DNA from: Eremomyces bilateralis CBS 781.70
Lineage: Eukaryota
NCBI GenBank assembly: GCA_010015585.1
Contig: ML975150.1
Reading direction: 5' to 3' (one strand)
Length of the DNA stretch: 64,000 bases
A program made the position numbers and the translations under genes. Under the pieces are notes generated by a model. That model was not told the origin of the DNA. It did not search any database and was given only the letters and a program-made list of their open reading frames with translations. Shown piece after piece: positions 30,343 to 51,983 of this stretch (position 1 is its first letter; every line of letters begins with the position of its first letter).

Positions 30343-32291
30343 GTTGGAAGGGATAAAATGGCATGAGGGGGCCTTGTCGCTTGATCGATGAGGCTGCTAC
30401 CCATCCATCGTCTATCCAAAAGTTGGAGGATTCGTAACAATAGTAATGGACACCAGACTGTTTCACGGTGTGATATTGAGGCGGTTCTGACGGGCGGTAC
30501 GGACCACACCGTTGCCAAGCTCGAACAGTTGAATCTTAGTTTCTAACGGAGGAGATACATCAGCTCAACGGCGCCAACATCGACCTGTAGGCAAATATTC
30601 TCCTTTAAAGTGATAAGAGCTCTCCTGATAAAACAATGTTATAGCAAAGATGCCTTAGGATTCGATGTGTATGCTGAACGCTGATTTCATGGGAACAACT
30701 TCTCTGTTCTATCCCTGGATCATGCCCTGGATGGTATGTGGAGCCGCATCACGTGCATCGAGTCCTTAAATGAACTTGAATTGAGAACTGAACCCGGTCA
30801 CTGGGATAAATCTTGCGCTCCAAGATACCTCCGCAAGTTCCCAGCCATGAATGTACGAAAATGAGCAGGATCCTAAACTCCTGATCAAGAAATCATTGCG
30901 ATCCAGGTATCCAACGTCGGAATGTCGTTATGCAAATTGAACGTGCGAGAAAGAGGGTGAAAGAGGTCGTGATGGTTCTTCTCACAGCAGTATCAGGATA
31001 CCGTTACCTCAACACTCACTGGAAGTGCATCATGGATCTCAATAGTTGTCCAAATCCTCACTCTTCCATATACTGGGCAACTCTATACTTTTGGATCCTA
31101 GCTCCTCGACGCAGTTGATAGTCCAAGGTATGGTATGTAGCCTCTGGGGTTACGCGTGAGGAAGTCCAAATTCCTACACTAACAAGTAACAACTGGGCAT
31201 TTGCAGGCTTGACGGTGGAGATATTCCTCCTCTTCCTAGCCTTTCCATGTGAAAATAAGCAGTCAAGGTCCAAGGGGAAACTGGAGAAGCCGTTCTAGCT
31301 TTACCCAGTGATAGAATGAAGTGAAGTCACCCTGACTCAAGTCCCTGCCATGTGAATCCCGAGTTCCCAACGGATCTGACACTGACTTGGGGTCTCCCAG
31401 TCGATCTCCCAAGACCCGGGGGCCAGGAGGCCAGGACTCCAGGGGTTCCGCCCCCAACGGACAGGAGGAGTGGAGGCCTTATTCCGTATTCCGTACAAGT
31501 TCTACTACTACTTATCAGGCCATCAAGGTTCCCGACTCCCTACCCCATGCTTTTTGCCATTGTATTCCAATTCCGGAAAGTCGTCGAGCCTCCGAAACTT
31601 CAACGTTGACAACATCTACAGGCCAATCAGGGAAGTTCCTTGGGTTGAATCTCACGATTCATATGTTTGGCACGTGAACATTGGACAATCTGGTCTGGTC
31701 TGGTCGCCGTCGTCGTCTGTCGGGTGGCTGGCCAGGACCATGGCGTTGGGTTTCCGGATGCGTGTCCTAGGAGACGGAAGTACATGACTCAACTGCAGTC
31801 TGCAGGGCTTGACTTGAGAACATCGAACGGGCAATGGGGAACTAGAAATGGCTGGGCGGTTGGTGGGCTGGGGAAGGGAAGCGGTGGGACGGGAGCGGAA
31901 AGTTTAGTGCGATTGTCCATGTGGGCTCCACAGTGGAAGTATGTCTGATTAGGATAAACCATTACTCATGAAAGGAGAAATTGATAGGATTGGCGGGCCG
32001 TCAAATAAATCGAGTCAGGCCAGACCATGTTCCTCGACATCATAGCATGGCACTTGGAAGCATTGCCGTGACAAGGGTGTTTGTAGACTTGATGTTTACA
32101 TAGTACGCCTTTTACGGAGTCCATTACGTAGTATGGAACAGTGAGATATCAGATGTTCAAGGGAATATGGATCCTGTCGCGATACGCGATAATAGGTGGT
32201 GTAGCGAAACAATCAAGACCGTGGACTTCTAGGACCACCTAAAAGCTACTCGGTCATGTGAGGACTTACTCTATATAGTTCCCAGATCCGA

Positions 32292-33639
32292 TTACAATTT
32301 CGTGCCCCCTTCGATTCTCGGCCCTGCTACCAATCGATTCTCGACCCTCTCCAACCTCCACTTCCCATTCCTCACCCACTCCACACACCTCCTCCACGGC
32401 CCCTCTGTCATACCGCCCCCAGCAACCCTCCTAATCACCCCATCCCCATCTGCCTCTCTCCCATCATATACCTCCTTCACCAGCTCTTGCAGCATCCAAA
32501 CCGCATGGGGGATAACCGCTCTCTTCCCTCTTGCCACCAGCCCCTCTGTCCCACTCCTCAACTCAAACGCCTGCCATCCCACCGCCCTGGGCAACTCCAC
32601 CCAGCCCTTCCGCGCCTCAAACGGCTTCCCCTTTCCGCCCTCCAGAAACCTCGAAACTTGCTCGCAGCTCTCCGCCAACAGCGGCAGATAATCTCCAAGC
32701 CATAGCTCCAAAAGCGGCACCAGCGTCTCCGGCAGCTCTGTATCCTCCGGCACACTCGCATACTCGTTCACCCATTCCCCCTTCTCGTCCAGCGTGACCA
32801 CCCCGCCGTGCGCCGACCCCGCGCGTCCCATCCCGCCGACCCGCTCGATCCATTCAAACACCAACGGCGCTTGCGTCTTGAGGATGAACCCCGGGACCGG
32901 GTTGCGAGAGAGGTGCGCGTAGAACGGCGCGTACACCGCGAAGTCCGCTAGCGAGATGCGGTCCCCGAGGAGGAACCGATGGTAAGCGAGATGTGTTGAG
33001 AGCAGCGCGAGGGTGTGCAAGAACTGCTGGCGGATCGCGGGCGCGGTGGTGTCGGTGATGCCGAGATTCGGGAGCACCAGCGGAAAGTTCGTCCATCCCT
33101 GCTGGTCCGCGCCCATCTTGGCTGCCATGGTCGCCTTCTTCCCGCCCAAGATCGTGTCCCCGAGCTCTGTCATGATCCACTCCCGCTGCTGGTCCAGCAC
33201 GTCCTTCTGGCCCATCCAGAACCGCCCTTGGATGTTCAGCCACTGGTCCGCCAGCAGTTCCACCCACGCGGCGGTAAACGCCAGCGCGGACGAGGACACG
33301 GGTATCACGCTGTGCTTCAGGTCCCGGTGGTGCTCTTCAAGGTATCGGATCATTCCGCGGGTGTCTTGAATCGCCTTGGGGACACTGCGGGCTTGGGAGC
33401 GGGGGAGGATGAGGATCGGGATGAAGTTGGTGCGGGTGAGGGGGCGGATGACTTCGGCATAGACACGCTGGGAGGCGAGGGCCTGGACGAAGGGGATGCC
33501 TTTCCATTGGAGGTAGGCGCGAATTCTGGTGGGAAGGTTAGTGAAGCAAATTTGGGGGGAGTACTACTCCGTACTTGGCTGCGAAATAGCTTAGCTCGGA
33601 GCCGACGAGGACGTAGGTGTTTTCGTCGACGGCACTCAT
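32292..33639 (-). CDS. glutathione S-transferase-fold protein (bacterial-like subfamily)
   Basis: Exons 33639-33575 and 33525-32292, 432 aa. Motifs SYFAAK/IRAYLQWKGIPF, IQDT..MIRYLE and FLLGDRISLADFAVYAPFYAHL. Confidence 0.85.
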
Positions 33640-36460
33640 GGCTGGATACTGTTCGCGGTCTGCAACTTCTCTAGGTAAGATGCGGGATTTAGGTTCTGTG
33701 CTGTTCTCTCTTCTCTCCGGGATCCTTGGCTAATGTGACTATTTGCGAGAACCCCGTTGATCGCCTCATTCCCAAAGTCCTCAGAGCATAGAACCGATAG
33801 TTCTGTATAGTCCAGTATAAGTAGCAGCATTGGCCCATTGTAGTGGAACTGGGGAGAAGCTGTACGGAGTAGATTGGTCGTGCATGAACCGAGGCGATTC
33901 TGGGTGTCACTTCCACCAATCATGCGTTCGACCGCGTTTGGTTTCAGTATCCTTTATTTTGACTGAGTAGCGGTACCAGGCTTCGGTCTTTCGAGGTAGT
34001 TACTCAACGCGCTCATGACGACCATTTAGTGGTCAGTCCGTCCCCGTTGCTGAGGGCATGAGCTCTGCTGCGCGGAGCATACAGGGCGACTAGTATCTCC
34101 GCTTGTTCGACTTGACCGGTTCTAATGTAGTGTCAGTCCTAAGGAAGAGAAGTGGCATGAATTGAGCACAAGTCAGTGAAGTCATGTCATTTGAATGATT
34201 GCCAGTATGAACGATACCAATCGTGTCTCGCACGTACATGTGCCGCGCAACTGAACCGCTGAATACTGGACCCCAGCCAGGATTATTGACTCGGTCCATC
34301 GGCCGGATGCAGGAGTGGCTGACTTTTGCATGAAGTGAAACTAGGGTCCCACGTGTAAAGCCACGGAAATCGGTGATTGCTGAATGCTGACATGCGATCA
34401 TCATGTCCCTAGCTAAAAGTTTGCTTGCTGTAATTGAGCTTAGAGCGGGATAGCGAGTGCAACCGGTCAGCGGCATCACTATGCAAATCGCTTACTCATT
34501 GTCTCCTTCTTTTAGGTCTGCCCATAAAATAGCGGTCTCAAATGGAACTCCGCGGTGATGGACCTTTACTATGTCCTGAGTACTCTTTGCTGATCTCCAC
34601 TTCTCCAGGGCAGTGACGGACACTAATAGAGGTACCCCAACGTGGAAATTCATGGTTGACAGTTGATAGTTGTGAGTTGACAATTGACATATGACATTCG
34701 TGAAAACCTGCGTGTGGGGAAGATAGAAAATCTCCATTAATCTTCGGGCCCCAAACTCTGATCGTTTAGGGAAGCTGCATAGTGCATACGAACCCGAGAG
34801 GACCGTTGCATTGACATGGTACTAGTTACTACGCGATAAACTCAAAATAGCCAGGGACAACGTGGAAGATCGGGATGGATGGTTATCGGTGCTTCCACCA
34901 ATCTTCTAGAAATTGACAAAGCTCGCTCCGTAATTTGGATGTTTGAGAATATCGTCCAGGATCCTTGCGACTGTCGCGCTGCGGACCTGCTGCTGCACCG
35001 CCTCGGGAGTTGACGCGACGGCGAGGCTCACCATTCGCGATAATTTCGGATTAATGGGGCCGAGGACCATGACTTGGAGACTGGAGTGCACCGAGTGTCA
35101 AGCATTGACTGCATTCACAAACTTTCCTACTTCCCAGCCTCCCCCAAATGAGGTGGTTTGGCAACTGTACAATGTAAATGATGGTTTTAGGGAGGAAAGT
35201 GCGTGAATTGCCATGGTCCGAGGTAGGTTCGTTTGTGTTGTAAGCTCCATGATTTATCTCGTGAGAACCACAGCTTAATACATACGTACGGTAAGTCAAT
35301 ATGAGACAGTTTCACCACGCAAATGACGGCATATCTAAGACGAGAGAAATGGAAATTTTGACGACCGAATGCAGTAAAGTGTACGAGCTGAGAGAAACTA
35401 GCCTTCCACTGATTTGAAACCCAACCAGATCTCACCGACGTGGGAGACATGTATATTGCGTGGGAATGTAGGATGTGGGATGACCGAAAAAGCAAAACAA
35501 CGATCAGGATAGGAGATTCATTCCCACGGACTTGGGACAGCGACTCGGCATTCATGAGGCTGAGATGGTCTTCAGTGGAGCGAATAAGCCGGATGGCCCT
35601 TCAACGATCCGACTCTCTGGGTGATGGCGGTTTGCGGGTGGGAACTGGGAAGGTCGCATTAGTAGCGGCAGAGATATGGAGACTGCAGTGGAGAGTCAGG
35701 ATCATGATTCGTTTAGTTCGTATGGAATCAAAGGCTGGCTTGATGGTTTTATCCCCAAAGTCCAAGGGGGTGAACGCCGTTTCTCGGGGAGCCGTTCCCC
35801 GTTGCTGTCCGGTGCGTATCCGCTTCCGTTTCTCGTTCCACCAACGTTCCTAAACGGTTCTCGAATCTCGAATTTGATACCAGGGCAACAATTCTAGGAC
35901 AGACTCGTGGCTCAGGCTCTCTGTTTCACTCTCAAATCGTCAAATGGAACTCCACCATTCCCCCGTTTCACGAAGATCAGCAGCCGCGCTACCGATATTG
36001 GGTGTGTCCAGGCAACCAGAGAGTGTCAAAACTCCAAACTTTCGAAACTTTAGGGGTATTTTGACTTTTGAGAATCTAACTGTGTTGGACAAGGGTGCGA
36101 TGTATTTCCTGGGGTTGGTTACAGTGTCAGAAAGACGAACAGGTCGTGTCAGAGGGATAGAAAATCTAAGGATGACTGCTGGCATCACTACCGTCCCTAT
36201 ACCTTGGTGCCAGGGCCGACTGTATGTTTGTACTAGCTGTCAAGTTGTACTGAAGCCTGAATGAAGTCAATTGCAGACAATATTAAAAAGCCACGGGCCA
36301 GTGATCTCAGGCAAGCAACAAAAGCTCTCCTGGGATTAGTGGCTGGCGCCTGGATGCAGTGGCGAGTAGGGGTTCTGACTCCTCAATCCTCGATCGGCAT
36401 CTTACCCAACACACGTTGCAAAATTGCAACAAAATATGCCTCTCCGTTCCCGAAACCTTA

Positions 36461-36517
36461 CTAACCTGCTTCGATGGCTTTAACCTGCTTCGGTGGCTCT
36501 AACCTGCTTCGGTGGCT
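36461..36517. repeat. 19-bp tandem repeat x3
   Basis: ctaacctgcttcgatggct / ttaacctgcttcggtggct / ctaacctgcttcggtggct. Confidence 0.9.
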
Positions 36518-38611
36518 CTGCTCAACTACTTTCTCCCAGCTCCGTCTTGGCAGTGCCCGAAGGTTTGATTAGGCTGGTGCCACTTTGCAAGGGCTCCAGG
36601 AGGATCAGTGGAAACTGGAAAGGTGAGTAATATTATGGAGTCTGGAGTAAGCTTCGTGCCGGTTGGGAGAAGCCGATAAACCGTCTCGCTGATCATCGAA
36701 ATGGAGGAATTCTCTCCAAAAGGCAATAGAAAAAGTCTCTAGAGTTTGAAGGACGGTGTGGCAGTTGGCACAGGTGGCAGGCAAACATGCGACAGGCGGC
36801 AATAATGAATTCATGCTTTCACCGAGAGCTATTTCAAAGTCTGATAGGTGTGCATGCCTATTCGGCTATTTCTGAACGTTGTTCCATAGGAGCAGTGATT
36901 CAGTAGCATACGCAAGCTTTAAAGTGTCGTTGGAGGAACAGCTGCACGTTGCATGGCCAGTAGAAACCCGGATTCTGGGATATCTCGTGTGGCGGGATTT
37001 ACGCGTTTTCTGGGTAATTGATAGGGGGAGACAGGCGCTGTCACAATCCCGCAATACTGTAATACCCATTGCTGCGAGCCTGGAGTAGGACTTAGGGGTA
37101 CTAGATAGAGTCATTCATATCGTTTGTGGTAGACAAAATTGATTGGTGGTACCTACCGTCTACATGTACCGGTACTCAACGACGTGAATTGGATACCTGT
37201 ATTCGCCAGTACCACTTACCAAGGTACTATTTCAACCTGATCTGAACTCCAGGGCATTTCTAGCTCCTGGCATTTCCTTCATATCAGACTTTACCTTACC
37301 TAAATAGCTGGTGATAAAGAACTACTATATACCCCGGATGCGGCATCTATCAGCTTTATGCGTGGAAGGCTTCTAGCGCGGACGGCGAATATGGGCCGGG
37401 CTGCAGCGCTGCAGGTACGCGGAACCCAAGAAACGGAATCACAGGGGCCATCCCTTTCCGTGGGACGCAGATTGGCGCGTTTTGCTGATTTCCGTTAAGG
37501 CGTGAACAGCCTCGCTCCTTTTGACTTTCATATCCCAGTCCCCGGCCAATGTACTGACCGGCGTACTGGCCACTCTCTGGCCTCCCGGCTCCCCTTGCCC
37601 GGCCCAATGCTCCGAAAAAACGAATCGCTCTGGCTCGGATTGACTTTTGTCTTTCACACGAGTGCCCTGGAAGTTGAAACATCCCTCTCCTGCAACGCGG
37701 ACGTCATGGACCAGTAGCCACATGCGGGAGACGGCGACGGGCCCCCCCCCAAAAAAACGCGTCCAATGATACCGGTGGCATGCTCCGGCGATGCAAGGGC
37801 TGCGTAAAGAAAAAAAGAAGGCCTGATCCCAATCTCCCCGGCCGTCTCTGTTCGATTCAGCGCAAGGGTTAAACTGATCCTTGCTATTCCTCGTTGGTTA
37901 CGGGATTCGCACTGACAATCACAACGAGTCGCAAAAGTAGTCCCATAATAATTTGACAGACTGTAACGCGGTGCAGAGACATGTCTTTGTCCTTTTGAGA
38001 GATCCTTTCCTTTGCCTTGAATCGTAAAGTGCCATGACCGTCCCACGCTTGAACGCTTGTGCGATTAAGGGGCATCTCATTTACGACTGCGCTCATTCAT
38101 AGCGTTTTTGCACACACATAAGACGAGAATGCCCTGCCGACTGTCGCCGTCATGTTCACTTTTATTTTCCCTTCTCCCTTCCTTCGAATTTCCGTTCCGT
38201 CAGATCTGATCGCTCATTTCACCAGTCTTTCATCGGCCTTTTCTGAAGTGCCTATAGCCTCCTTACAGTTGTGAGCCACGCTGCCTACGAAGCTCCCTTT
38301 CTTCCTGATATGCATATGCACATGTCCTGGCTTTATCACCACGTCTCCAAAATAAGTTGTCCGACATAACATCCAGCATTTTTTGGACAGACTGCTTTTC
38401 GTTTAAAGTGTCTCATCTTCTCACTTCTTTCTTCTCCTACCTCACAACAAAAAACATACTCCGCATCTGACCCCCCTCAATTTCCGTCCTGCGAACATCA
38501 CTGCCTTTGATTCGGTCGGCTGCACAAGTGAGTCAGACATGTATTCTCGGCACTTAACCAATGTCACTAATCAGAGTAGTTCTACTGCCAACCTTGCAAT
38601 CCAGTGTCATC

Positions 38612-38710
38612 ATGATTCTGAGAGAGACCGAAATGCACAACATGGGCCGAGGTGCCTATGACACTACGGGAACTCCGAAGCCGCCACCACCGCCGCCCAA
38701 AAGGAGATGA
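38612..38710 (+). CDS. putative Pro-rich micropeptide MILRETEMHNMGRGAYDTTGTPKPPPPPPKRR
   Basis: Three in-frame ATGs (38612, 38633, 38642) and a TGA at 38708-38710. It is preceded by a CT-rich leader and an intron from 38528 to 38574/38579, and followed by intron 38863-39118. Confidence 0.6.
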   Translation: MILRETEMHNMGRGAYDTTGTPKPPPPPPKRR

Positions 38711-41300
38711 ATCGCATGGTCCCCTCCATTCGCTGATTGGTGTCGGATATCACAAACCACACCAGACAGAGCTCTTTTGCAGGCGCCCACAAGCGCTGGA
38801 AAAGTTATGAGATGCGGGACGCGCCATTGCATGGTAGCCTGCAGGATGACTCGACCATCCTGGTATGTTTGATTCCCAGTCATATGTTTCCCAGTGAGCG
38901 ATTCCGCCCTGCGACTTGCTTTTCATCAAGTCTGCAGAAAACTATGTGTGCAGTTGCGATCCCGACGTCCCAAATGGGATGGGATGTCGTTGCATATGTC
39001 CAATCCGGTCTATTCAACCAGATCGGATATCAAGGCAGCGAGGCTGGAACGCCGAGAATCACGACAATATTTTGCGATCTATTATTATTGATAGAATCCG
39101 GAGCTGACATTTCCATAGTTGTCCTCTCACAGTCCACACACCTTCCTCACATGCAGTACCTAACCTCATTCCGCGATCCCTGCCCTTCACGATACTGCCC
39201 CCTCCACCAAAACAACCGACGACAAAAGCAACCCCGATCTGTTTCCATTAGTCTACGGCCGGCTAAAACTCATTATCCGGCGACCTGTTTGATTTCCTGC
39301 CCCTTGGCCCTTAGCGATCTGTAATACCTGCCTGGCTTCTTTTCCGATTGAGCGAGCGATTGCTACCTTCTGTTTCGAATTCGGGTTGCTTCCCGATCGA
39401 TCGCATCCACCTTTGTACGATACGAACGCCGTCCTGCAACATCACACGCTCGAACACTCGACACACTAATACCCCATTATCTTCTGTCCTTCCTGTTTCA
39501 ATACTCCTCTGGAAACCCAAAATCCCTCGGCAAATCGACCCGCATTGCGTCACTCGCCCGCTCTCTTACTCGATTGGAAAGCATACCGGATTGGGTTTTC
39601 TGGCGTTGAGTTGGCGAACATTAGACATCGCTGGGTTGCACTAGCTGGCTTTTCGGGATACCCTCTACTTGTTTTCCTTCTGACTTGTCTTTCTTTGGCT
39701 GGTTTTTCGGGTTGGTTTTTCGAACATCAGATAGAATTAGGCCTTCAGTGGCGTACAGTCGGCCTCGCGGCCCCCTATGTACGACTTCGGAGTTTGAATG
39801 ACTTTCTTTGGGTTTGGGCTGCAAAAACGGAACAGGATTATGTACAGCATGTCCGCAAGGGATAGGAACGAATGCCTGTCGCATTCGGGGTACTGTTTGC
39901 TTTTCGGTGCTTGGGTTTTCGGATGTAAATATGTCATCCACGTCTGCGATTAGCACGGTCAGCTTGAATCGTATGCTACAACACTGCTCAGTGTCCTTAC
40001 CACAATCAAGCGCTAATACATTTCACATTGTACCTTGCAGTCCTTCGCTGCATCGCCTCTCGTTCCTTGTGATGATTTGTGCATATCCCTTTGCTTCTTT
40101 GTCTGCAATATGTCCTTTCTTGATGCTTCGCCCCACTCAGGAAAAACAAATGATATTTGGTCACTGCGCACCCACCCTTACGGCCAACTACCGCATCTTC
40201 AACCAATCCCGTTTTCCGGATCTTTCACGAACGACTGCTCTCCCAGCAGGAACTGACAGGTAGCCTAGACGCAGCAGGCTGTTTTCGGCACTTCGCAAAC
40301 CGCCAGTCCCGTGTGGCGGCACAGCGTTGCACGAACCCCCCTTCGGTACCAGATTCCGCAATTTGCCATCGATCGGATCGCTCGATTGCCTCGTATGTTC
40401 AACAATAAGCTCTGTACACGCCGTGTCACCGTGGATGCAAACGCCACCACCTACCAAGCGAACCCCAAGTCCCCGAATGCATGGGACCTGTCACAATTGA
40501 CCTGTTTTCCTCTGTTGGTCAGTGGTCCGACCGGGCATTGTCTGTCGTCGACGGAAAGATTCATGAATTCACCACATGTCGTGCAGCGGACCGTTACCTC
40601 ATACCTGCTTCCCGGTACGGAATAAGGAAGTATAGGGGAATTCGTTCTGCGTATCCACATCTACCCATCAAGGAGTAATGCCAAAAATATATTTGAGCCG
40701 GGCAGCTTTCCGTGCCACGTTTGCCGGCTAGCGCTAGTGCTTGAAGAGTTGCACATCAAACATCAAATGACAAATGGGATGAGTCGGACTATTGGGGTAA
40801 TATGTACATATCGAAAGGGATAATAGTCAGCAAACTAGGATTGTAATACCGGAGGACGCAACGATGGCATCTGGTTCTTCAATATCATATACCTATACTA
40901 ATGGGATATATGTGCATTCTATGAGATTAACTTGGGTTGAATCCCTCCACTGTGGTATAACCACAAACTGCCTTGGTCACCATGAGGAATTCCTAGACGT
41001 ATTTCGTCTTTGGACCATAATGTATCGGGTGCTGCTAATATGAGTGGCAGGCCTAGGCTTTGGTGGCTTAGATGTAAGTTGCTATTCTAGATTCGACCGT
41101 AATTAGTGTAGAAGCACAGCAGCATAGAAACACTGAATTCGGGAAACTTATGATGTACAAGTCTTCCCTTGCCATAACATTCACTCAGGTAGCTATCCGA
41201 GATACTTTGGTCTCTACAGACGTCAGCCATCCATCGTTTCATAGATTCTCCGACACTTAGCCCGGAGATTGCTTCGAAATTATACCCCATTGAACCACCT

Positions 41301-43654
41301 TTACCGGGGGCGCACATCCAGCTCAATCTCGTCGTCCCCTTCAGCATGAACCCGGAAACTGGTCCTCCGGCTCCCTCCCTTCGCAATCTGTTTCTCCGGC
41401 GCATCCCCGAGCTGCTCCTTTCGCGACCCAGCTTCCCCCCTCTCCGCCTCATCCCCATCCTGAATCGGGCTGTTCGATCCGCTTGTGCTCCTGTCCGGTC
41501 CATCCATAGCCGGAAACTGGGTGAGCGCATTGGCACTTCCGTGCTGGCCACCCACGCTCTCCATAGTGAAGGGGCTCGCCGTCGGTGCATCGAGGATAGC
41601 TAGCTCTTCGGAGGCAAACCACCTGGGTAGCAGCCAGACGCGTGCGGGAATGAGGATTATAATGAAGATGGGGAAGCCGATGGCTGCGATCGTTTGCGTG
41701 ATGGCGAAGGTCGCGCCGAAGCCGATCAGCTGTATCGCGACGAAATACCAAATGGCCGATTGCCGGCGGATGCGGCGGAGTGGCTCGGTCTTGGGGACCA
41801 ATGACCTGTCGCGGAAGAGATAGAGGATTTTTGTGGTGATGCCGTTGGCTTCAAGAGCTTGGATGCCCATTACGAAGAAGAGTCCGGCCAAGACCGCTTG
41901 TGGAATCAGGTGAATGACCACAAGGAGAGGGCCGGTCATGGTGCCGAGTGTCAGCAGGCCTTGCGCGAGGTTGGACAATCGTTGCTCGACCACATGGCTG
42001 GTTATGCGGCGGGCGTGGCCTTTGGATTCCGATTCATCAGTGTCGGCCACCATTTGAGTTACGCAAAGCGAATTCGTATGGAACGGCGCCTGTGGAATGA
42101 GGCCATTTGGGAAGGGAATTCCAAGGAGTCCGGCGACGCCTGTGGTGATTCCAAGGAGGAAAATGTCCCAGTGAAATCCTGCTGGCTTGCGCAACGGGAA
42201 TTCTGTTCCCTGTGCAATGAGTGAAGACACTATTCATAAGTCAGAGTGATGTTCTTGCCCATTCTCCCGTATGTGATCACTCGCCGTTATGGTCAAACCA
42301 AAATAGGATGGTGAGTAGGACTCCAAATGGGAGCGCAATGAATACGTCCCCTACTGATACCCCACCCCAGAAGTGTACGAGCCAGCCCCGATCCGTTGTT
42401 GGGAAGAACGCCTTACTGGTGGGTAAGGTCAAGAGCTCGATATCCCTCATCTTGCCGATGTGCACGAAGCCAGTGAAGAAAATTACCGTCAATGGCGTGC
42501 CATAGTCCTCGATGAACTTCCGCACATGTCGTTGGAAGAGGGTGCTTTCCCCTATCACACCGCAGCCGTAGGCAACCATCAACACCATCAGTGCTATTGC
42601 AATAGATAAGTATGCCGAAGCATCACCCGCCTCCCACTGACGAGTAAGGACTTGAATGCCCTTCTGGAGATATATGAAGGCGACGTAGAATCCAAAGATG
42701 TCGCACGGGAACCTTGTCACATATTTCAGACTATTGCAGGAGTTCGAGATCGCCAAAAACCAATGCATGAGCATTGCCCATCTACCGGTCTGTTAGAGTA
42801 TTCTTCCAATACCTCGGTTTTGTACCTACAATCCAATCCAGCACATGAAGGAGAAATAGTTAGTTCCTCGAGGAGTAATTATGTCATACACCGTATAATT
42901 AAATACAGTGATAGGACCTTGGCCGTATAATTAGGACCATTCTCGTTTTGGGTGTAGAAGAGTCCTACCAGTTACACCGACGATGACGAGGGGTTGAGCC
43001 GCCAGAAGTGCAAATACTACTGCACCAAGGACAGAAGCAAGTAGAACTTCGTTGACTCCAAAGCTCATGTTGGTTTTTGCGAACATATCCAAGGAGAATG
43101 CCAGGGCAGGCAAGATGCTGGGAGCGGTATTAGTGTCCGTTCGGTCTTTTCTGGATTGACTTGTCTATGGAGATCGTGGCACTCCATCCAAAGACTGTCG
43201 GGAGTAGACAAGACGTCAGGTTATCATAGCGTCGCTGATAGCACAGGGTTCTGCAGAATTGTCGGGATGGGAGGAAGAATGTATTAAAAATGAGGTTATC
43301 AAGCGGTGGGCAGTCATGAACATACTTCGCAAAATACATGTATACTGTCGCGGGAATGACCCGGTAATCATACGCATGAGTCCAGTCACTGAGATAGAAC
43401 GGCAGGCGCCTCTTCAGATCATTCTTCATGCCCTGAAACCAATGAATCCTCCACCAGGCATCTCCCCCATTGGCGTTGTTTGAATCCGGATCGGCATGGT
43501 GCGGCCGATCGTCGGCAGAAGCATGTCGCAACGAGGAGTGCAAAAACGGGACTTTTGTCTTCCATTTCGCAGCTCGTCGATTCGGGCGGATACCGGTCGT
43601 GATGTGCGGCGAGCTTGCGCCAGGAAGGTTATACGGCTCGGCGGATTGGGACAT
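41301..43654 (-). CDS. BOR1: borate exporter, SLC4/HCO3- transporter family
   Basis: Exons 43654-43326, 43117-42969, 42917-42830, 42781-42285 and 42229-41301. Motifs YFANILPALAF, QPLVIVGVTGPI, FDHNVSSLIAQ, GLIPQAPFHT and VEQRLSNLAQG. Confidence 0.93.
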
Positions 43655-44680
43655 GGCGAACGGAATCTACACCAAGGATGAAGTCAATCTTGCCAATGTC
43701 ACAGCGCGTCTAAGCACGGAAAAGGACCAATGAGCGCATGCGAATCGGGCGCTATGTAACGTCGACACAGAGCAAAGGACGATCTCTCCGGACAAAGAGA
43801 ATGGGTAGGTCTTGTTGGAGACAGTGGAAGTCGGAAGACCAGGCGGTCCATTTAAGGTCAAGTAGTGTCCGTCTAGTCAAAACTTTTGCGGAGTGAGACT
43901 ATAACATGAATTCGACAACCTGCAGGCGTTCTGGCGAACTGGCGAAATCGGGGGAGACTAGAGAGGAGGTGCAGCCAATTGCGTCATTTTTTCGATAGAC
44001 CGGGGCCAACACGATCCTTGACCTATGTTTTTCAACAGCAGCGGCATTTAATAACTCGAAATGGATTATTCCCATAAAGAGAAGACTGTAGATGGTGGCG
44101 GCAAATGAGCTCTTCTCATCATTATTGAGCATCATCGTCGTACGGAATAGTTTAGGACGTAAGGGCGAATCCGTGGAACGGGAAGTTATCAAATTGGTCA
44201 AGAACCCTTCAACACCTGTTGGTGCCTTATGGCCTGAGGCGAACAGATTACATATACATAGGTAGTTATTGTTTCTCCCAGCAGGAGGAGCTCATGTCAA
44301 CTCTGCAACTCTGTAGACTCCCTACAACATCCCTTGTCATATTCTTGTTGGCCGATTCAACTGCCTTTCTTTGGAGTCAAGCATAGATATCCTTTTGAGT
44401 TCGGGTCATCTCCTTTGTAGCTAAGAGACCTCATTAGGGCTGCACGTTAAGGCCTCGGTATTGTTATCTCCGCAATTCGGCAAGGGTCCATCTTAGATCA
44501 CATAGCCGGACCAAGCCAACTGGAAACTGTGAAGTCCGAAGCTCTTTTAATCAGTGGAGAAATCCTTGATAAGTTGATATCGATTATCCGTGTCTGTTGT
44601 TACCCTTTCTACCTTCAAAGTCTTTCATATCTATTTCTAAGAGTCGAAACAACGTACCGTGTTTGACCAACCCAAACAAC

Positions 44681-45877
44681 ATGGCGTCTGCACCACCCAA
44701 CGAGATCATCGTATATCACTATCCATTCTCTCCATATGCGCGTAGGGTTCTTTGGTATTTCCAATTACAAGGTATCCACTATGGCCAGTGTGTAAGCAGC
44801 TCTGGATCCTAGGCTTTGGCTTCTTACCGGCCTGGAAATCAGATGTAATGACGGATACTCACCTCGCATTCAAGGTCCAACCGCCCACCCTGCCCCGTCC
44901 CACCCTTGAGGCTCTAAATGTCAACTACCGCCGTATTCCCCTCATGTCAATCGGACGTACGGTCTACTGCGACTCGCGACTCATCCTGCGAAAGCTAGAA
45001 ACGCGCTTTGGTTCTACTCCGAAATCAAGCAACCCCAAACTTGGCCTGGCTCCCTTGACAACGCCAGACCAAAAGGCACTGGCGAATCTCTTCGAGCGAT
45101 GGACAGGGGATGGTGGCGTGTTCGCCAGGGCAACGAAGTTGATCCCACTTGACCTTCCAGTCATGAAAGACGCGAAGTTTCGGGAGGATCGCTCGTCGTT
45201 TGCGGGGGGCAAGCGAAGCTGGGATCCGGAAGCCATGCGCCAAGCTAGACCAGAGGCACTGGCAGGCATTCGCGAGCAACTTGAGTGGTTGGAGAGCGGG
45301 TTGCTCAGCGATGGGAGGGAGTGGGTGCTTGCAACCCCGAAAGCCAGCATTGCGGATATCGAAGGTGAGTTCCGCAACGAGTCTTCATATCATGCGCTTC
45401 TTCATACTAATATCGTACTGCACAGCGATCTGGCTGTTTGACTGGCTTATCGAAATGCCTGGAGCCCTCCCTGCTGAGTGGTCCAAGCAATTTCCTCGGG
45501 TGTGGGCTTGGGTCGCACGATTTCGTGCAGTGTTGAAAGAGACGAGGAACTTGGCTCCTAAGGCTGTTACCTTCAAGCCGGAAGAGACGGTTTCTTACGT
45601 TCTCTCTGCGCAATTCGCCCCTGTACTCGACTCTGCAGGCCCTGCAGGACAAGTGGAGTGGGTTGATCCGGCCGATTCCCTTGGATTGAAAGCCGGCGAC
45701 AGTGTTACTGTTTGGCCTATCGATTCGGGAATGACACACAAAGACCAGGGGAAGCTCGTCCGTCTGTCGGTCAACGAAGTCATCATTGAGAAGGAGGTGA
45801 AGGGTTCCACCATCAGAGTATCCATGCCTCGATGGAATTTCCGGATAATTAAGTCTTCCTCCGCATCGAAGATCTAG
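44681..45877 (+). CDS. glutathione S-transferase-like protein
   Basis: Exons 44681-44791, 44875-45364 and 45426-45877. Motifs YPFSPYARRV, YRRIPLMSIG..YCDSRLILRKLE, SIADIEAIW and PRWNFRI. Confidence 0.88.
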
Positions 45878-50733: not shown

Positions 50734-51410
50734 CTACACCGTCCTCCGGTCCGTCATGACGCGCACGATGCTCCCCTGCCCGGCAATCTCCACGGTCTTC
50801 TCATGCCAGCTGAGCAGCACGCTCATCGCCTGCCCACCGCCCTCGGCGGTCCCGCGTCCGGAAATTTGTGAGAAACCCGTGGGCTGCGGCGAATCGGTTT
50901 TGGATCCTAAGGGGGTTGCTTGGGCCATTCCTCTGTATCTACGGAGTGAGGACGGTTAGCCGCTGTGTCGGAGCTAGAGAGAAACGGACTCACAGGTATT
51001 TCATGAGCACATCGAGCAGTTCGGAGCCACCGGGTGACTGGTATATCCGTTGTAGAAGGGGCGTCATGTCCGATTGTCGGATTGACTGGAGGATCTCGAT
51101 CACAGTAGCAAGATGCAGCTCCTGTTATAGTAATGGCCCTCTTAGTACGGGTTCTCCCACGAACTGCTTAAGCGAGCATATATACCTTGCCTCGTTCATC
51201 CGACCCATATGGCGCACTCTCCAACGCCCCCCGTAACGCACCCTCGGTGTCCCCGCCCCGTAACAGCTGCCTAATCTGCCCTGCCAGGTTCTGGACGTCG
51301 GAGGCGGAGACTTGCGCGACGGGAGGGGATAGGGAGGCGAGGTCGAAGTTAGTGGATGCCTCGGGGTCGAGCGCATCGATGTTGATCGTTCGCCAGTTGA
51401 TGGCGGCCAT
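50734..51410 (-). CDS. ARC15: Arp2/3 complex subunit 5 (ARPC5)
   Basis: Exons 51410-51186, 51121-50994 and 50938-50734. Motifs NWRTINIDALDPE, LDVLMKYLYRGM and LLSWHEKTVEIAGQGSIVRVMTDRRTV. Confidence 0.95.
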
Positions 51411-51983
51411 GATGACGGTCGCGTGTGGTGAATTGCCGTGGATGCCGCTGGAACCGACGCTGGACGGAGGAGGTAAGCAGGGAGGATTGGATTTGGTGGA
51501 AAGGGCTCGATATATCACCGAGGGAAGGAACAGTGGACGTCGATTCGCGAGGCCGCTCGGTCAGTGATTTGGAAGCTAGTTGAGTGTGCCTTGCGATGAG
51601 CTTCGAACGAGACCAAATGGGGTTATGTGGATGTATAGTTAATACGTGGTTGTGGTGGGGTGCCATTTGCGTGGGAATACTTGATGGCTTGGCGCAGGTC
51701 ACTGCACGGCAGCAGGTCCCTGAGTCTCCTGGACACCGGCCTCACAGGTAAAATGAAGCTTCATATTTCTAGAACTTAAATGGTCTCGCCTCATAGAGGA
51801 CGAAGAATATTGAAAACCAAAGTATACAGGTGATTGGAGAATTCTATTTCTGCTGCGGCCTTCGTGTGATGACCACTTTGGTGCTAGTATACAGCAGCGA
51901 TGCGATGCGACGAACTCCAAACTGATGAGACTATATACAATTCGCTAAACAGAAAGACCGGATTCTTATAACGCGTCACCGCC

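Follow-up and report, generated by a model that had tools for sequence, protein, structure and literature searches.

A spliced and deeply conserved micro-gene of filamentous ascomycetes with a predicted 32-residue product carrying a proline/lysine tail

The arginine attenuator peptide (AAP), of about 24 codons and conserved across the Pezizomycotina, is encoded at the 5' end of a fungal mRNA, upstream of the main open reading frame (ORF) arg-2/CPA1, and the mfa-1-type lipopeptide pheromone precursors are very small ORFs with a CAAX end, carried on a much longer message that is spliced or has a long 3' untranslated region (3'UTR). In arthropods, the pri peptides of the mille-pattes/tarsal-less/polished rice (mlpt/tal/pri) gene act through an E3 ligase. 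This gene carries several functionally redundant small ORFs (smORFs) with an LDPTGLY domain, as one part of PMC4612599 describes, and an excerpt of PMC6173133, citing Zhang and Sachs 2015, states that the exon junction complex (EJC) takes part in nonsense-mediated decay (NMD) in Neurospora crassa. Here we describe a 32-codon short ORF (sORF) of Eremomyces bilateralis CBS 781.70, located in a stretch of 64,000 nucleotides of contig ML975150.1 (assembly GCA_010015585.1), hereafter the window. The sORF lies in a real, spliced and deeply conserved micro-gene, which is an unnamed hypothetical protein in some annotations and matches no described family, and this locus very probably encodes a conserved peptide.

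The sORF product is MILRETEMHNMGRGAYDTTGTPKPPPPPPKRR (32 aa), ending in KRR. Its in-frame ATGs are at 38612, 38633 and 38642, the third within ACAACATGG, and its six consecutive proline codons are CCG CCA CCA CCG CCG CCC; the ORF at 38612-38710, the context of its third ATG and the mixed proline codons are all as the initial annotation of this DNA had read them. Searching the 42-codon open frame 38582-38707 against a database of 5.8 billion proteins gave 25 candidates of 30-72 residues, of which 20 had E<=1e-3 (best E, 3.2e-10). Named homologues, all hypothetical, come from Alternaria arborescens, Microthyrium microscopicum, Venturia inaequalis, Penicillium steckii, Pyricularia oryzae and Gaeumannomyces hyphopodioides, and cluster look-ups add Annulohypoxylon nitens, Monilinia fructicola and Penicillium roqueforti. 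These members span four classes of Pezizomycotina (Dothideo-, Eurotio-, Sordario- and Leotiomycetes) and share the core MGRGAYDTTG followed by a Pro/Lys tail. The MGRGxY(D/N) mini-ORFs that the initial annotation had mentioned among Pezizomycotina predictions do exist as unnamed hypothetical proteins, for example in Alternaria, Venturia, Penicillium, Pyricularia and Monilinia. In a 26-sequence alignment, R13, G14, A15, Y16, D17, T18, T19, G20, P24, P26 and P27 are invariant, and a profile made from it retrieved 223 proteins at E<=1e-3 (74 at E<=1e-10) among 1.84 billion representatives. In longer gene models, the motif is found nearly always at the extreme C-terminus, after low-complexity sequence, as would be expected if gene calls had been over-extended around a short conserved ORF whose stop is fixed.

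Eight database ORFs (P0039, P0041, P0051, P0057, P0062, P0094, P0127 and P0134) carry 2-3 tandem copies of GRG[AGS]YDT[TS]G..KP(KP)n in one frame, with acidic linkers between the copies; in the internal copies, W, F, Y or S stands at the Met-11 position. This in-frame duplication suggests that the module behaves as a peptide unit and not as a leader-specific arrest sequence. One of these ORFs, P0134, is an annotated 138-aa protein of Annulohypoxylon nitens.

Outside this family, no significant match was obtained. No Pfam family was found at E<=10 for nine of ten members, the tenth giving one chance row (E 4.8); among solved structures (Protein Data Bank) the best match, at E 1.2, covered the proline run only, and the ESM Atlas held no usable match for the family. 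The strings GRGAYDTTG, AYDTTG, GYDTTG and SYDTTG and the family topic were unmatched in the literature searched, and supplements of fungal sORF papers (e.g. PMC7394265) could hold the family.

We also looked at the DNA of related loci. Metagenome contigs were scanned with the pattern MGRGAYDT, which gave 200 stretches, 170 of them encoding a relative, and 80 loci were kept. The core is present in 79 of the 80, and in 74 the stop lies 9-16 residues past G20; of the other six, four read on, one is cut by the contig end and one is without the core. Comparing 33600-41100 of the window with the 80 loci by blastn, all 50 matches fell within 38606-38708, and the window holds one copy of the sORF. Since conservation is confined to the ORF and protein matches go down to 3e-10, the ORF stands above chance. 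Across 52 distinct core DNAs, each degenerate position shows every class of synonymous codon, and at codons 19-20, which lie outside the search pattern, synonymous divergence (pS) is 0.63 and non-synonymous divergence (pN) 0 (45 distinct sequences). For the N-terminus we considered the 67 sequences (66 of the 80 loci and the window) with a Met exactly ten codons before the core; among the 45 distinct ones, M1 is kept in 45, I2 in 41, R4 in 43 (through six different codons), E/D5 in 43 and N10 in 44, and codons 2-10 overall have a pN/pS of 0.53. Purifying selection at the amino-acid level, which had been proposed as a check on the micropeptide, is therefore seen both in the absence of replacement at codons 19-20 and in the invariant core, and the substitution pattern indicates that selection acts on a protein sequence beginning at the first ATG.

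The four loci that read on (L002, L021, L064 and L069) keep the frame open for 26 to 111 further codons past the core and are also without the conserved N-terminus. These loci may be decayed copies, copies with an extra intron, or a different form of the gene.

As F, Q, Y or N replaces Met-11 in some relatives, Met-11 is not a general start. The product length of 22-32 aa given in the initial annotation is thereby narrowed: 32 residues are most likely, considering that M1, I2, R4, E/D5 and N10 are kept, and the 22-residue form starting at the replaceable Met-11 is not favored. The tail that follows the core has a length of 9-14 residues in 86 of 90 distinct tails; altogether, these 90 tails are 50% Pro and 29% Lys/Arg with 4 acidic residues, and 75 end in Lys or Arg. 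PPP is found in 74 of them and PP in 86. Class I and class II SH3 ligands follow the consensus [KR]xxPxxP and PxxPx[KR], respectively, and one or the other is matched in 69 of the 90 tails as well as in the window tail, a frequency often expected from composition alone. By eye, no hydrophobic N-terminus or secretion stretch was seen in the peptides (no signal-peptide predictor was run). A scan for CAAX ends in 33600-41100 gave five small ORFs ending in Cxxx, the sORF not among them and none pheromone-like.

The structure of the transcript was read from contigs of one public run (X1), labelled 'RNA?' only, which contains 92% of the sampled words of 37500-41000; the contigs were used for junctions, and their depths were not used to rank expression. 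Results showed 7 intron-like joints on the 14 kb from 31000 to 45000, 4 of which are CT..AC and fall inside coding exons of the neighboring minus-strand transporter gene; therefore, run X1 holds spliced cDNA. At our locus, the joint 38527->38580 skips 52 nt with GT..AG ends, and the joint 38861->39118 skips 256 nt, whose ends become GT..AG after a one-base shift of the cut, giving an intron at 38863-39118. These joints show that both predicted GT..AG introns are real and that the message is on the plus strand. The first (GTGAGT at 38528, AG ending at 38579) and an unplaced second one had been predicted from the letters of the DNA, and both junctions are now seen as spliced joints. Contig 3 joins 37867-38527 to 38580-38861 with zero differing letters, and contig 4 covers 39118-42229, continuous into the convergent transporter gene and itself carrying no strand. 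The spliced model extended to 41100 contains 13 ATG-ORFs of at least 25 codons, the longest of 110 codons, and the scanned frames have no Pfam match, in agreement with the initial view that there is no convincing main ORF. By size alone, the 32-codon ORF is unremarkable, as these 13 ORFs are similar.

Considering other roles for the transcript, a small nucleolar RNA host function of the 256-nt intron 2 was rejected, as inspection by eye showed neither C/D nor H/ACA boxes and the CTGAC of this intron is its branch point. Telomerase RNA was likewise set aside, no CCCTAA template being seen by eye, with no dedicated search made.

Upstream of the sORF, the message has an unusual leader. In the window, the last ATG before intron 1 is at 38322, 38325-38527 is AUG-free, and the only ATGs between 38323 and 38611 (38539 and 38561) are both inside intron 1. 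The same depletion is found in 43 distinct related loci with 1 kb of upstream sequence, where the bins at 200-300 and 300-400 nt hold 4 and 7 ATGs versus about 42 and about 45 expected, with 81 and 92 CATs on the same strand; the combined 200-400 nt contain 11 ATGs against about 87 expected, and 173 CATs. ATG counts are normal farther upstream, and ATGs return within the final 200 nt, in the region of a predicted intron. In 37 of 48 distinct upstream sequences, such a leader intron (GT...CTRAY...AG) can be predicted, its end lying 6-37 nt from the ATG; once it is removed, the AUG-free leader has a median length of 365 nt, out of about 400-450 nt considered. Provided that transcription starts after 38322, the start of the window sORF is the first AUG of a long leader. 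The CT-rich tract at about 38150-38500, which had been noted as resembling a transcription start, corresponds to a measured pyrimidine excess: 38001-40000 is pyrimidine-rich on the plus strand, with GC skews of -0.18 and -0.14, and 38001-39000 also has an AT skew of -0.11.

We also noticed that the 5' splice site of the leader intron (38528-38536 in the window) is very often GTGAGTCA(G), containing the heptamer TGAGTCA, which we take to be an AP-1/Gcn4-type site. Such splice sites are seen at 15 of the 37 predicted introns, L010, L017, L024, L039, L049, L051, L055, L061, L068, L076, L079 and L080 being among the loci concerned; in 26 of 52 distinct sequences, TGAGTCA or TGACTCA occurs no more than 250 nt before the ATG. 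A TATA-like element is found inside 28 of the 37 predicted leader introns; the window intron has CCAAT but lacks TATA. There may be an internal promoter here, or the splice site may overlap a site for a transcription factor.

The 3'UTR is conserved as well. In alignments of 13 ARPC5-type and 9 Rab5-type loci (named after the next gene, see below), a GGGATGA-like exon motif precedes a conserved 5' splice site (GTAAGT or GTACGT) that is accompanied by a branch point; this splice site can be recognized by eye in 12 of the 13 and 9 of the 9, respectively. This splice site lies 119-240 nt past the stop in related loci and 152 nt past it, behind GGATGAC, in the window. A strict pattern is matched in 15 of 53 distinct sequences (52 loci and the window) versus 20 of 779 control pieces. 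Farther downstream, ARPC5-type and Rab5-type loci share ordered blocks (GGCGTT or GGAGTT, TAGAC, GATACC, TAGA, a hairpin and TGTAC). A composite pattern of this 3' module is found in 22 of 54 distinct loci, always 426-744 nt past the stop, and nowhere else in 1.12 Mb. It has one match in the window (39602-39782, plus strand) against 0.01 in each shuffled window; the pattern was written with the window already seen, and the window module rests on it. Using a 706-position ARPC5-type 3' model, nhmmer gave no match at the window locus and only a chance one at 55528-55478 (E 1.2). Within the module, the stem of a small hairpin pairs in 36 of 36 cells of a MAFFT alignment of 12 loci, compared with 6-53% for slid controls; these loci were picked by a finder demanding a complementary stem, so that the pairing percentage is largely built in and the result overstated, and the 24/24 stem pairing of finder-picked loci is by construction and is no evidence. 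For two of the three pairs, both partners changed (4 sequences with A-U to G-C and 1 with G-C to C-G), and the covariation score of the stem was reached by 0 of 500 shuffles. An all-group MAFFT alignment, in which the 3' blocks and three CAG/CTG hairpins were out of register, was excluded from the pair counts. We also considered whether another conserved ORF spans intron 2 or lies in the 3' module and rejected this, as the candidate ATGs are not conserved.

A second ATG-poor zone follows the 3'UTR intron at +200 to +500 nt past the stop (36 distinct loci), with 23, 9 and 24 ATGs per 100-nt bin versus 34, 36 and 50 expected, and 105, 70 and 96 CATs. In the window (zone compared, 39151-39797), there is no ATG in 39311-39710, and the alignments of related loci contain no conserved ORF after this zone. 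The module end reads TGTA(C/T)nATA(G) in many loci, for example L013, L017, L035, L057 and L062, and is similar to the site of PUF proteins, UGUAnAUA; at this position (39778-39786), the window carries TGTACGAC.

Taken together, splicing, amino-acid-level constraint and the breadth of the family support the micropeptide interpretation that the initial annotation had put forward. We favor, with reasonable though guarded confidence, that this is an independent spliced micro-gene for a free, disordered peptide ligand acting in trans, with RGAYDTTG giving specificity and the tail docking on a proline-recognition domain. The long AUG-free leader with its intron would bring scanning ribosomes to the sORF start first, and the product would be a 32-residue, non-hydrophobic and probably disordered peptide. 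Such a peptide may act in trans as a free short-linear-motif ligand, to which the tandem modules in one ORF also point; its invariant RGAYDTTG block would make the specific contact, and its Lys/Pro tail would be a docking arm of the polyproline type, bound by a domain that recognizes prolines, for instance SH3. Message abundance could be set by the 3'UTR intron together with the conserved 3' module.

Several points weigh against this reading. The argument for translation is a sequence-based one, and the tandem-module ORFs are gene calls and not proven proteins. The invariance of eight residues in the loci is partly by construction, as these are the residues of the search pattern MGRGAYDT, and many loci are near-duplicates from few studies, so that independent lineages are far fewer than 80. 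An RNA contig of the window reaching back to 37867 would include seven upstream ATGs, and if most transcripts start near this position, other ORFs come before the sORF. Of the 90 tails, 21 are without the SH3-type pattern, which has low information in Pro/Lys-rich strings. Finally, a conserved 3'UTR intron and 3' module exceed what a simple peptide message needs, and a role in cis or at the RNA level fits them equally.

This last point leads to the alternative that survives best, which we nevertheless regard as unlikely, namely that the sORF is a cis-acting translational sensor. Here, a tunnel-length nascent peptide with its proline run would slow or arrest the ribosome, for example according to eIF5A/polyamine supply, ribosome occupancy upstream of the 3'UTR exon junction would set message decay, and the 3' module would be the working part. 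Polyproline stalls are relieved by eIF5A, and the frequency of PPP and PP in the tails agrees with such a mechanism, as does the position of the most conserved residues 10-20 positions before the stop. As PPP is absent from 16 of the 90 tails, eIF5A dependence is no family-wide certainty, and the polyproline/eIF5A link of the initial annotation could apply to the common PPP-bearing members but would not be universal. The tail sequence and last residues also vary, the stop being TGA, TAA or TAG, which does not favor a sensor. On its side are the 3'UTR intron, conserved at 119-240 nt past the stop and spliced in the window, the 3' module with its covarying hairpin (in finder-picked loci), and the part that the EJC takes in Neurospora crassa NMD according to the excerpt of PMC6173133. 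A sensor accounts for the conserved 3'UTR build better than a trans-acting ligand does, although nhmmer failed to find the 3' module in the window. On the contrary, tandem-module relatives, acidic linkers and internal copies without Met are hard to explain by a sensor, which here does worse than the ligand. We know of no trans function of the 3' module.

The 'bifunctional RNA' alternative suggested initially gains partial support from the conserved 3'UTR intron and 3' module. In its fullest form, a bifunctional translation-coupled sensor would operate in the sampled Pezizomycotina classes: RGAYDTTG and the proline run would slow the ribosome depending on eIF5A/polyamine status, the 3'UTR junction would set NMD, the 3' module would act as RNA, and the released peptide may feed the endocytic actin machinery. 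We hold this combination to be a speculative idea and distinctly improbable.

A conserved-peptide upstream ORF (uORF) of the next same-strand gene, with the window copy orphaned by rearrangement, is still less probable. In a census of 39 loci with at least 3 kb downstream, this gene encodes ARPC5 (PF04699) in 14, a Ras-family GTPase in 23 and neither in 2; the best solved relatives of the GTPase are Ypt51 and Rab5 (5.6e-50). A co-oriented gene about 1.2-2 kb past the sORF in 37 of the 39 loci is what a uORF predicts, and ARPC5 is linked within 4-12 kb in several arrangements, the window included, being often 4-5 kb upstream in Rab5-type loci; yet the 37 loci represent very few independent arrangements. 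Moreover, on the sORF strand of the window there is no downstream ARPC5 or Rab5-type gene, the next gene being convergent, and the transcript is expressed and spliced without a downstream ORF. The two downstream genes are unrelated and the peptide is equally conserved with either or with none. With a downstream gene that varies (ARPC5, Rab5-type or, in the window, none), the sORF does not qualify as the uORF of one gene. The spacer between the sORF and the next gene contains 9-57 ATGs versus 10.7-48.5 expected (23 loci), and counts fall only in the last 200-400 nt before this gene; as the spacer ATGs are at expectation, ribosomes scanning along the sORF message could not reach the next gene, which appears to be preceded by its own leader.

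The linkage can be noted in its own right. The sORF and ARPC5 are linked within about 1-12 kb in several arrangements (loci L003-L080 and the window), many loci are also linked to a Rab5/Ypt51-type GTPase, and L011 is linked to dynactin p62, each of these being an actin or endosome gene. This linkage to ARPC5, Rab5 and dynactin p62 suggests the endocytic actin machinery, as an association only, and it may be plain synteny.

Little room is left, too, for the possibility that the product is a precursor whose peptide is processed or modified, such as a repeat precursor cut at basic sites or a peptide cross-linked at Tyr, which we rank marginally below the uORF. The tandem modules with linkers beside Lys/Arg runs, the invariant Tyr and the frequent KRR, KPR or KK ends are the features that such a precursor might have. 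Most members, however, have a single module, there is no CAAX end and by eye no N-terminal hydrophobic stretch (no predictor run), and the neighbors scanned include no processing or tailoring enzyme family. A long non-coding RNA with the 32-codon ORF as a chance frame is next to impossible: the many ORFs of similar size, the absence of a long ORF in the spliced model and the lack of Pfam matches would suit it, but conservation covers exactly this ORF, synonymous change is saturated and non-synonymous change zero in the core, the stop position is conserved and the leader AUG-free.

The micro-gene lies in a gene-poor stretch of about 7.5 kb bounded by a GST-like gene on the left and an HCO3-/borate-transporter-like gene, both on the minus strand (Table 1). 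Between these genes there are no stop-to-stop frames of at least 200 codons, 40 frames from the gene-poor stretch and exon 3 gave no Pfam match at E<=0.01, and 33500-41500 gave no Rfam family at E<=1, in agreement with the gene desert described in the initial annotation. The window ARPC5 gene lies 12 kb from the sORF on the opposite strand, and in many related loci it is directly downstream of the sORF. Two further observations concern the neighborhood. An unspliced RNA contig of low depth (17.9) covers 34818-37294, that is, 2.5 kb of the upstream gene-poor stretch, in which the frames scanned have no Pfam match; its source might be a further non-coding transcript or genomic DNA carried over into the library. 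In the transporter gene, one joint (42229-42285) has the ends CT..GC instead of CT..AC and may be a GC-AG intron on the minus strand or a cut offset.

Table 1. Features of the micro-gene and of its neighborhood (positions in the window)
Feature	Position	Strand	Basis
GST-like gene; left border of gene-poor stretch	32292..33563	-	Pfam GST_N/GST_C
Exon 1 / 5' leader, as covered by contig 3	37867..38527	+	RNA contig; pyrimidine-rich tract ~38150-38500
Intron 1, 52 nt, in 5'UTR; GTGAGTCAG ... CTAAT ... AG	38528..38579	+	Joint 38527->38580, GT..AG
Exon 2: entire sORF + 152 nt of 3'UTR	38580..38862	+	Contig 3
sORF, 32 codons + TGA (38708-38710), MILRETEMHN-MGRGAYDTTG-TPKPPPPPPKRR	38612..38710	+	Sequence, homologues
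GGATGAC exon motif, 13 nt before intron 2 5' splice site	38844..38850	+	Sequence; alignments of related loci
Intron 2, 256 nt, 3'UTR, GTATGT ... GCTGAC ... AG	38863..39118	+	Joint 38861->39118, cut +1
Exon 3 (3'UTR); right end guessed, placed just beyond conserved module	39119..39900	+	Contig 4
Putative conserved 3'UTR module, ~180 nt: GGCGTT .. TAGAC .. GGGATACC .. GATAGA .. small hairpin .. TGTAC	39602..39782	+	Composite pattern
Small hairpin GCC-TTCAGT-GGC within module	39741..39752	+	MAFFT covariation; RNAalifold prediction
HCO3-/borate-transporter-like gene; convergent neighbor	41087..43882	-	Pfam PF00955; CT..AC joints in RNA contigs
ARP2/3 complex p16 (ARPC5) gene	50764..51509	-	tblastn; Pfam PF04699 on locus copies

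Among the filamentous ascomycetes are the main fungal models, many species used in industry and most crop pathogens, and in their genomes the sORF gene is missed or labelled 'hypothetical' by most annotations. Invariant residues across four classes represent a constraint usual only for core machinery, and the message keeps its unusual build throughout, with an AUG-free intron-bearing leader, a conserved 3' module and, between the two, a post-stop exon junction. If made, the peptide would be among very few deeply conserved fungal micropeptides and would provide an entry to a new interaction; if the cis-acting alternative is true, it would represent a new kind of translational sensor.

Compared with the known systems, the micro-gene shares with the lipopeptide pheromone precursors a tiny ORF on a far longer message, and this class was rejected considering that the peptide ends in KRR and has no CAAX box. 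Secreted repeat precursors (of the alpha-pheromone type or of ribosomally synthesized and post-translationally modified peptides) were also rejected, given that the module is mostly single and no hydrophobic N-terminus was seen by eye, without a predictor being run. The likeness to SH3 ligands lies in basic tails that are half proline and carry the consensus in 69 of 90 cases, weak evidence given this composition, and the RGAYDTTG block is without counterpart in them. Like the NMD-target mRNAs of Neurospora with 3'UTR introns (Zhang and Sachs 2015, as cited in PMC6173133), the message has a spliced intron more than 50 nt past the stop (152 nt in the window, 119-240 nt in relatives); those mRNAs are ordinary protein genes. 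The AAP is similar in size, clade and amino-acid conservation, but the micro-gene has a variable downstream gene or none, and ATGs abound in the spacer; a uORF of AAP type was rejected, as no fixed main ORF is found downstream (14 ARPC5, 23 Rab5-type and 2 neither, of 39). The nearest analogue in kind would be the arthropod mlpt/tal/pri gene, with which the fungal gene has no sequence relationship. The fungal modules repeat within one ORF and not as separate cistrons, and the fungal peptide has 30-35 residues with a Pro/Lys tail. What the two have in common is a message once thought non-coding and very short peptides built around an invariant motif in repeatable copies.

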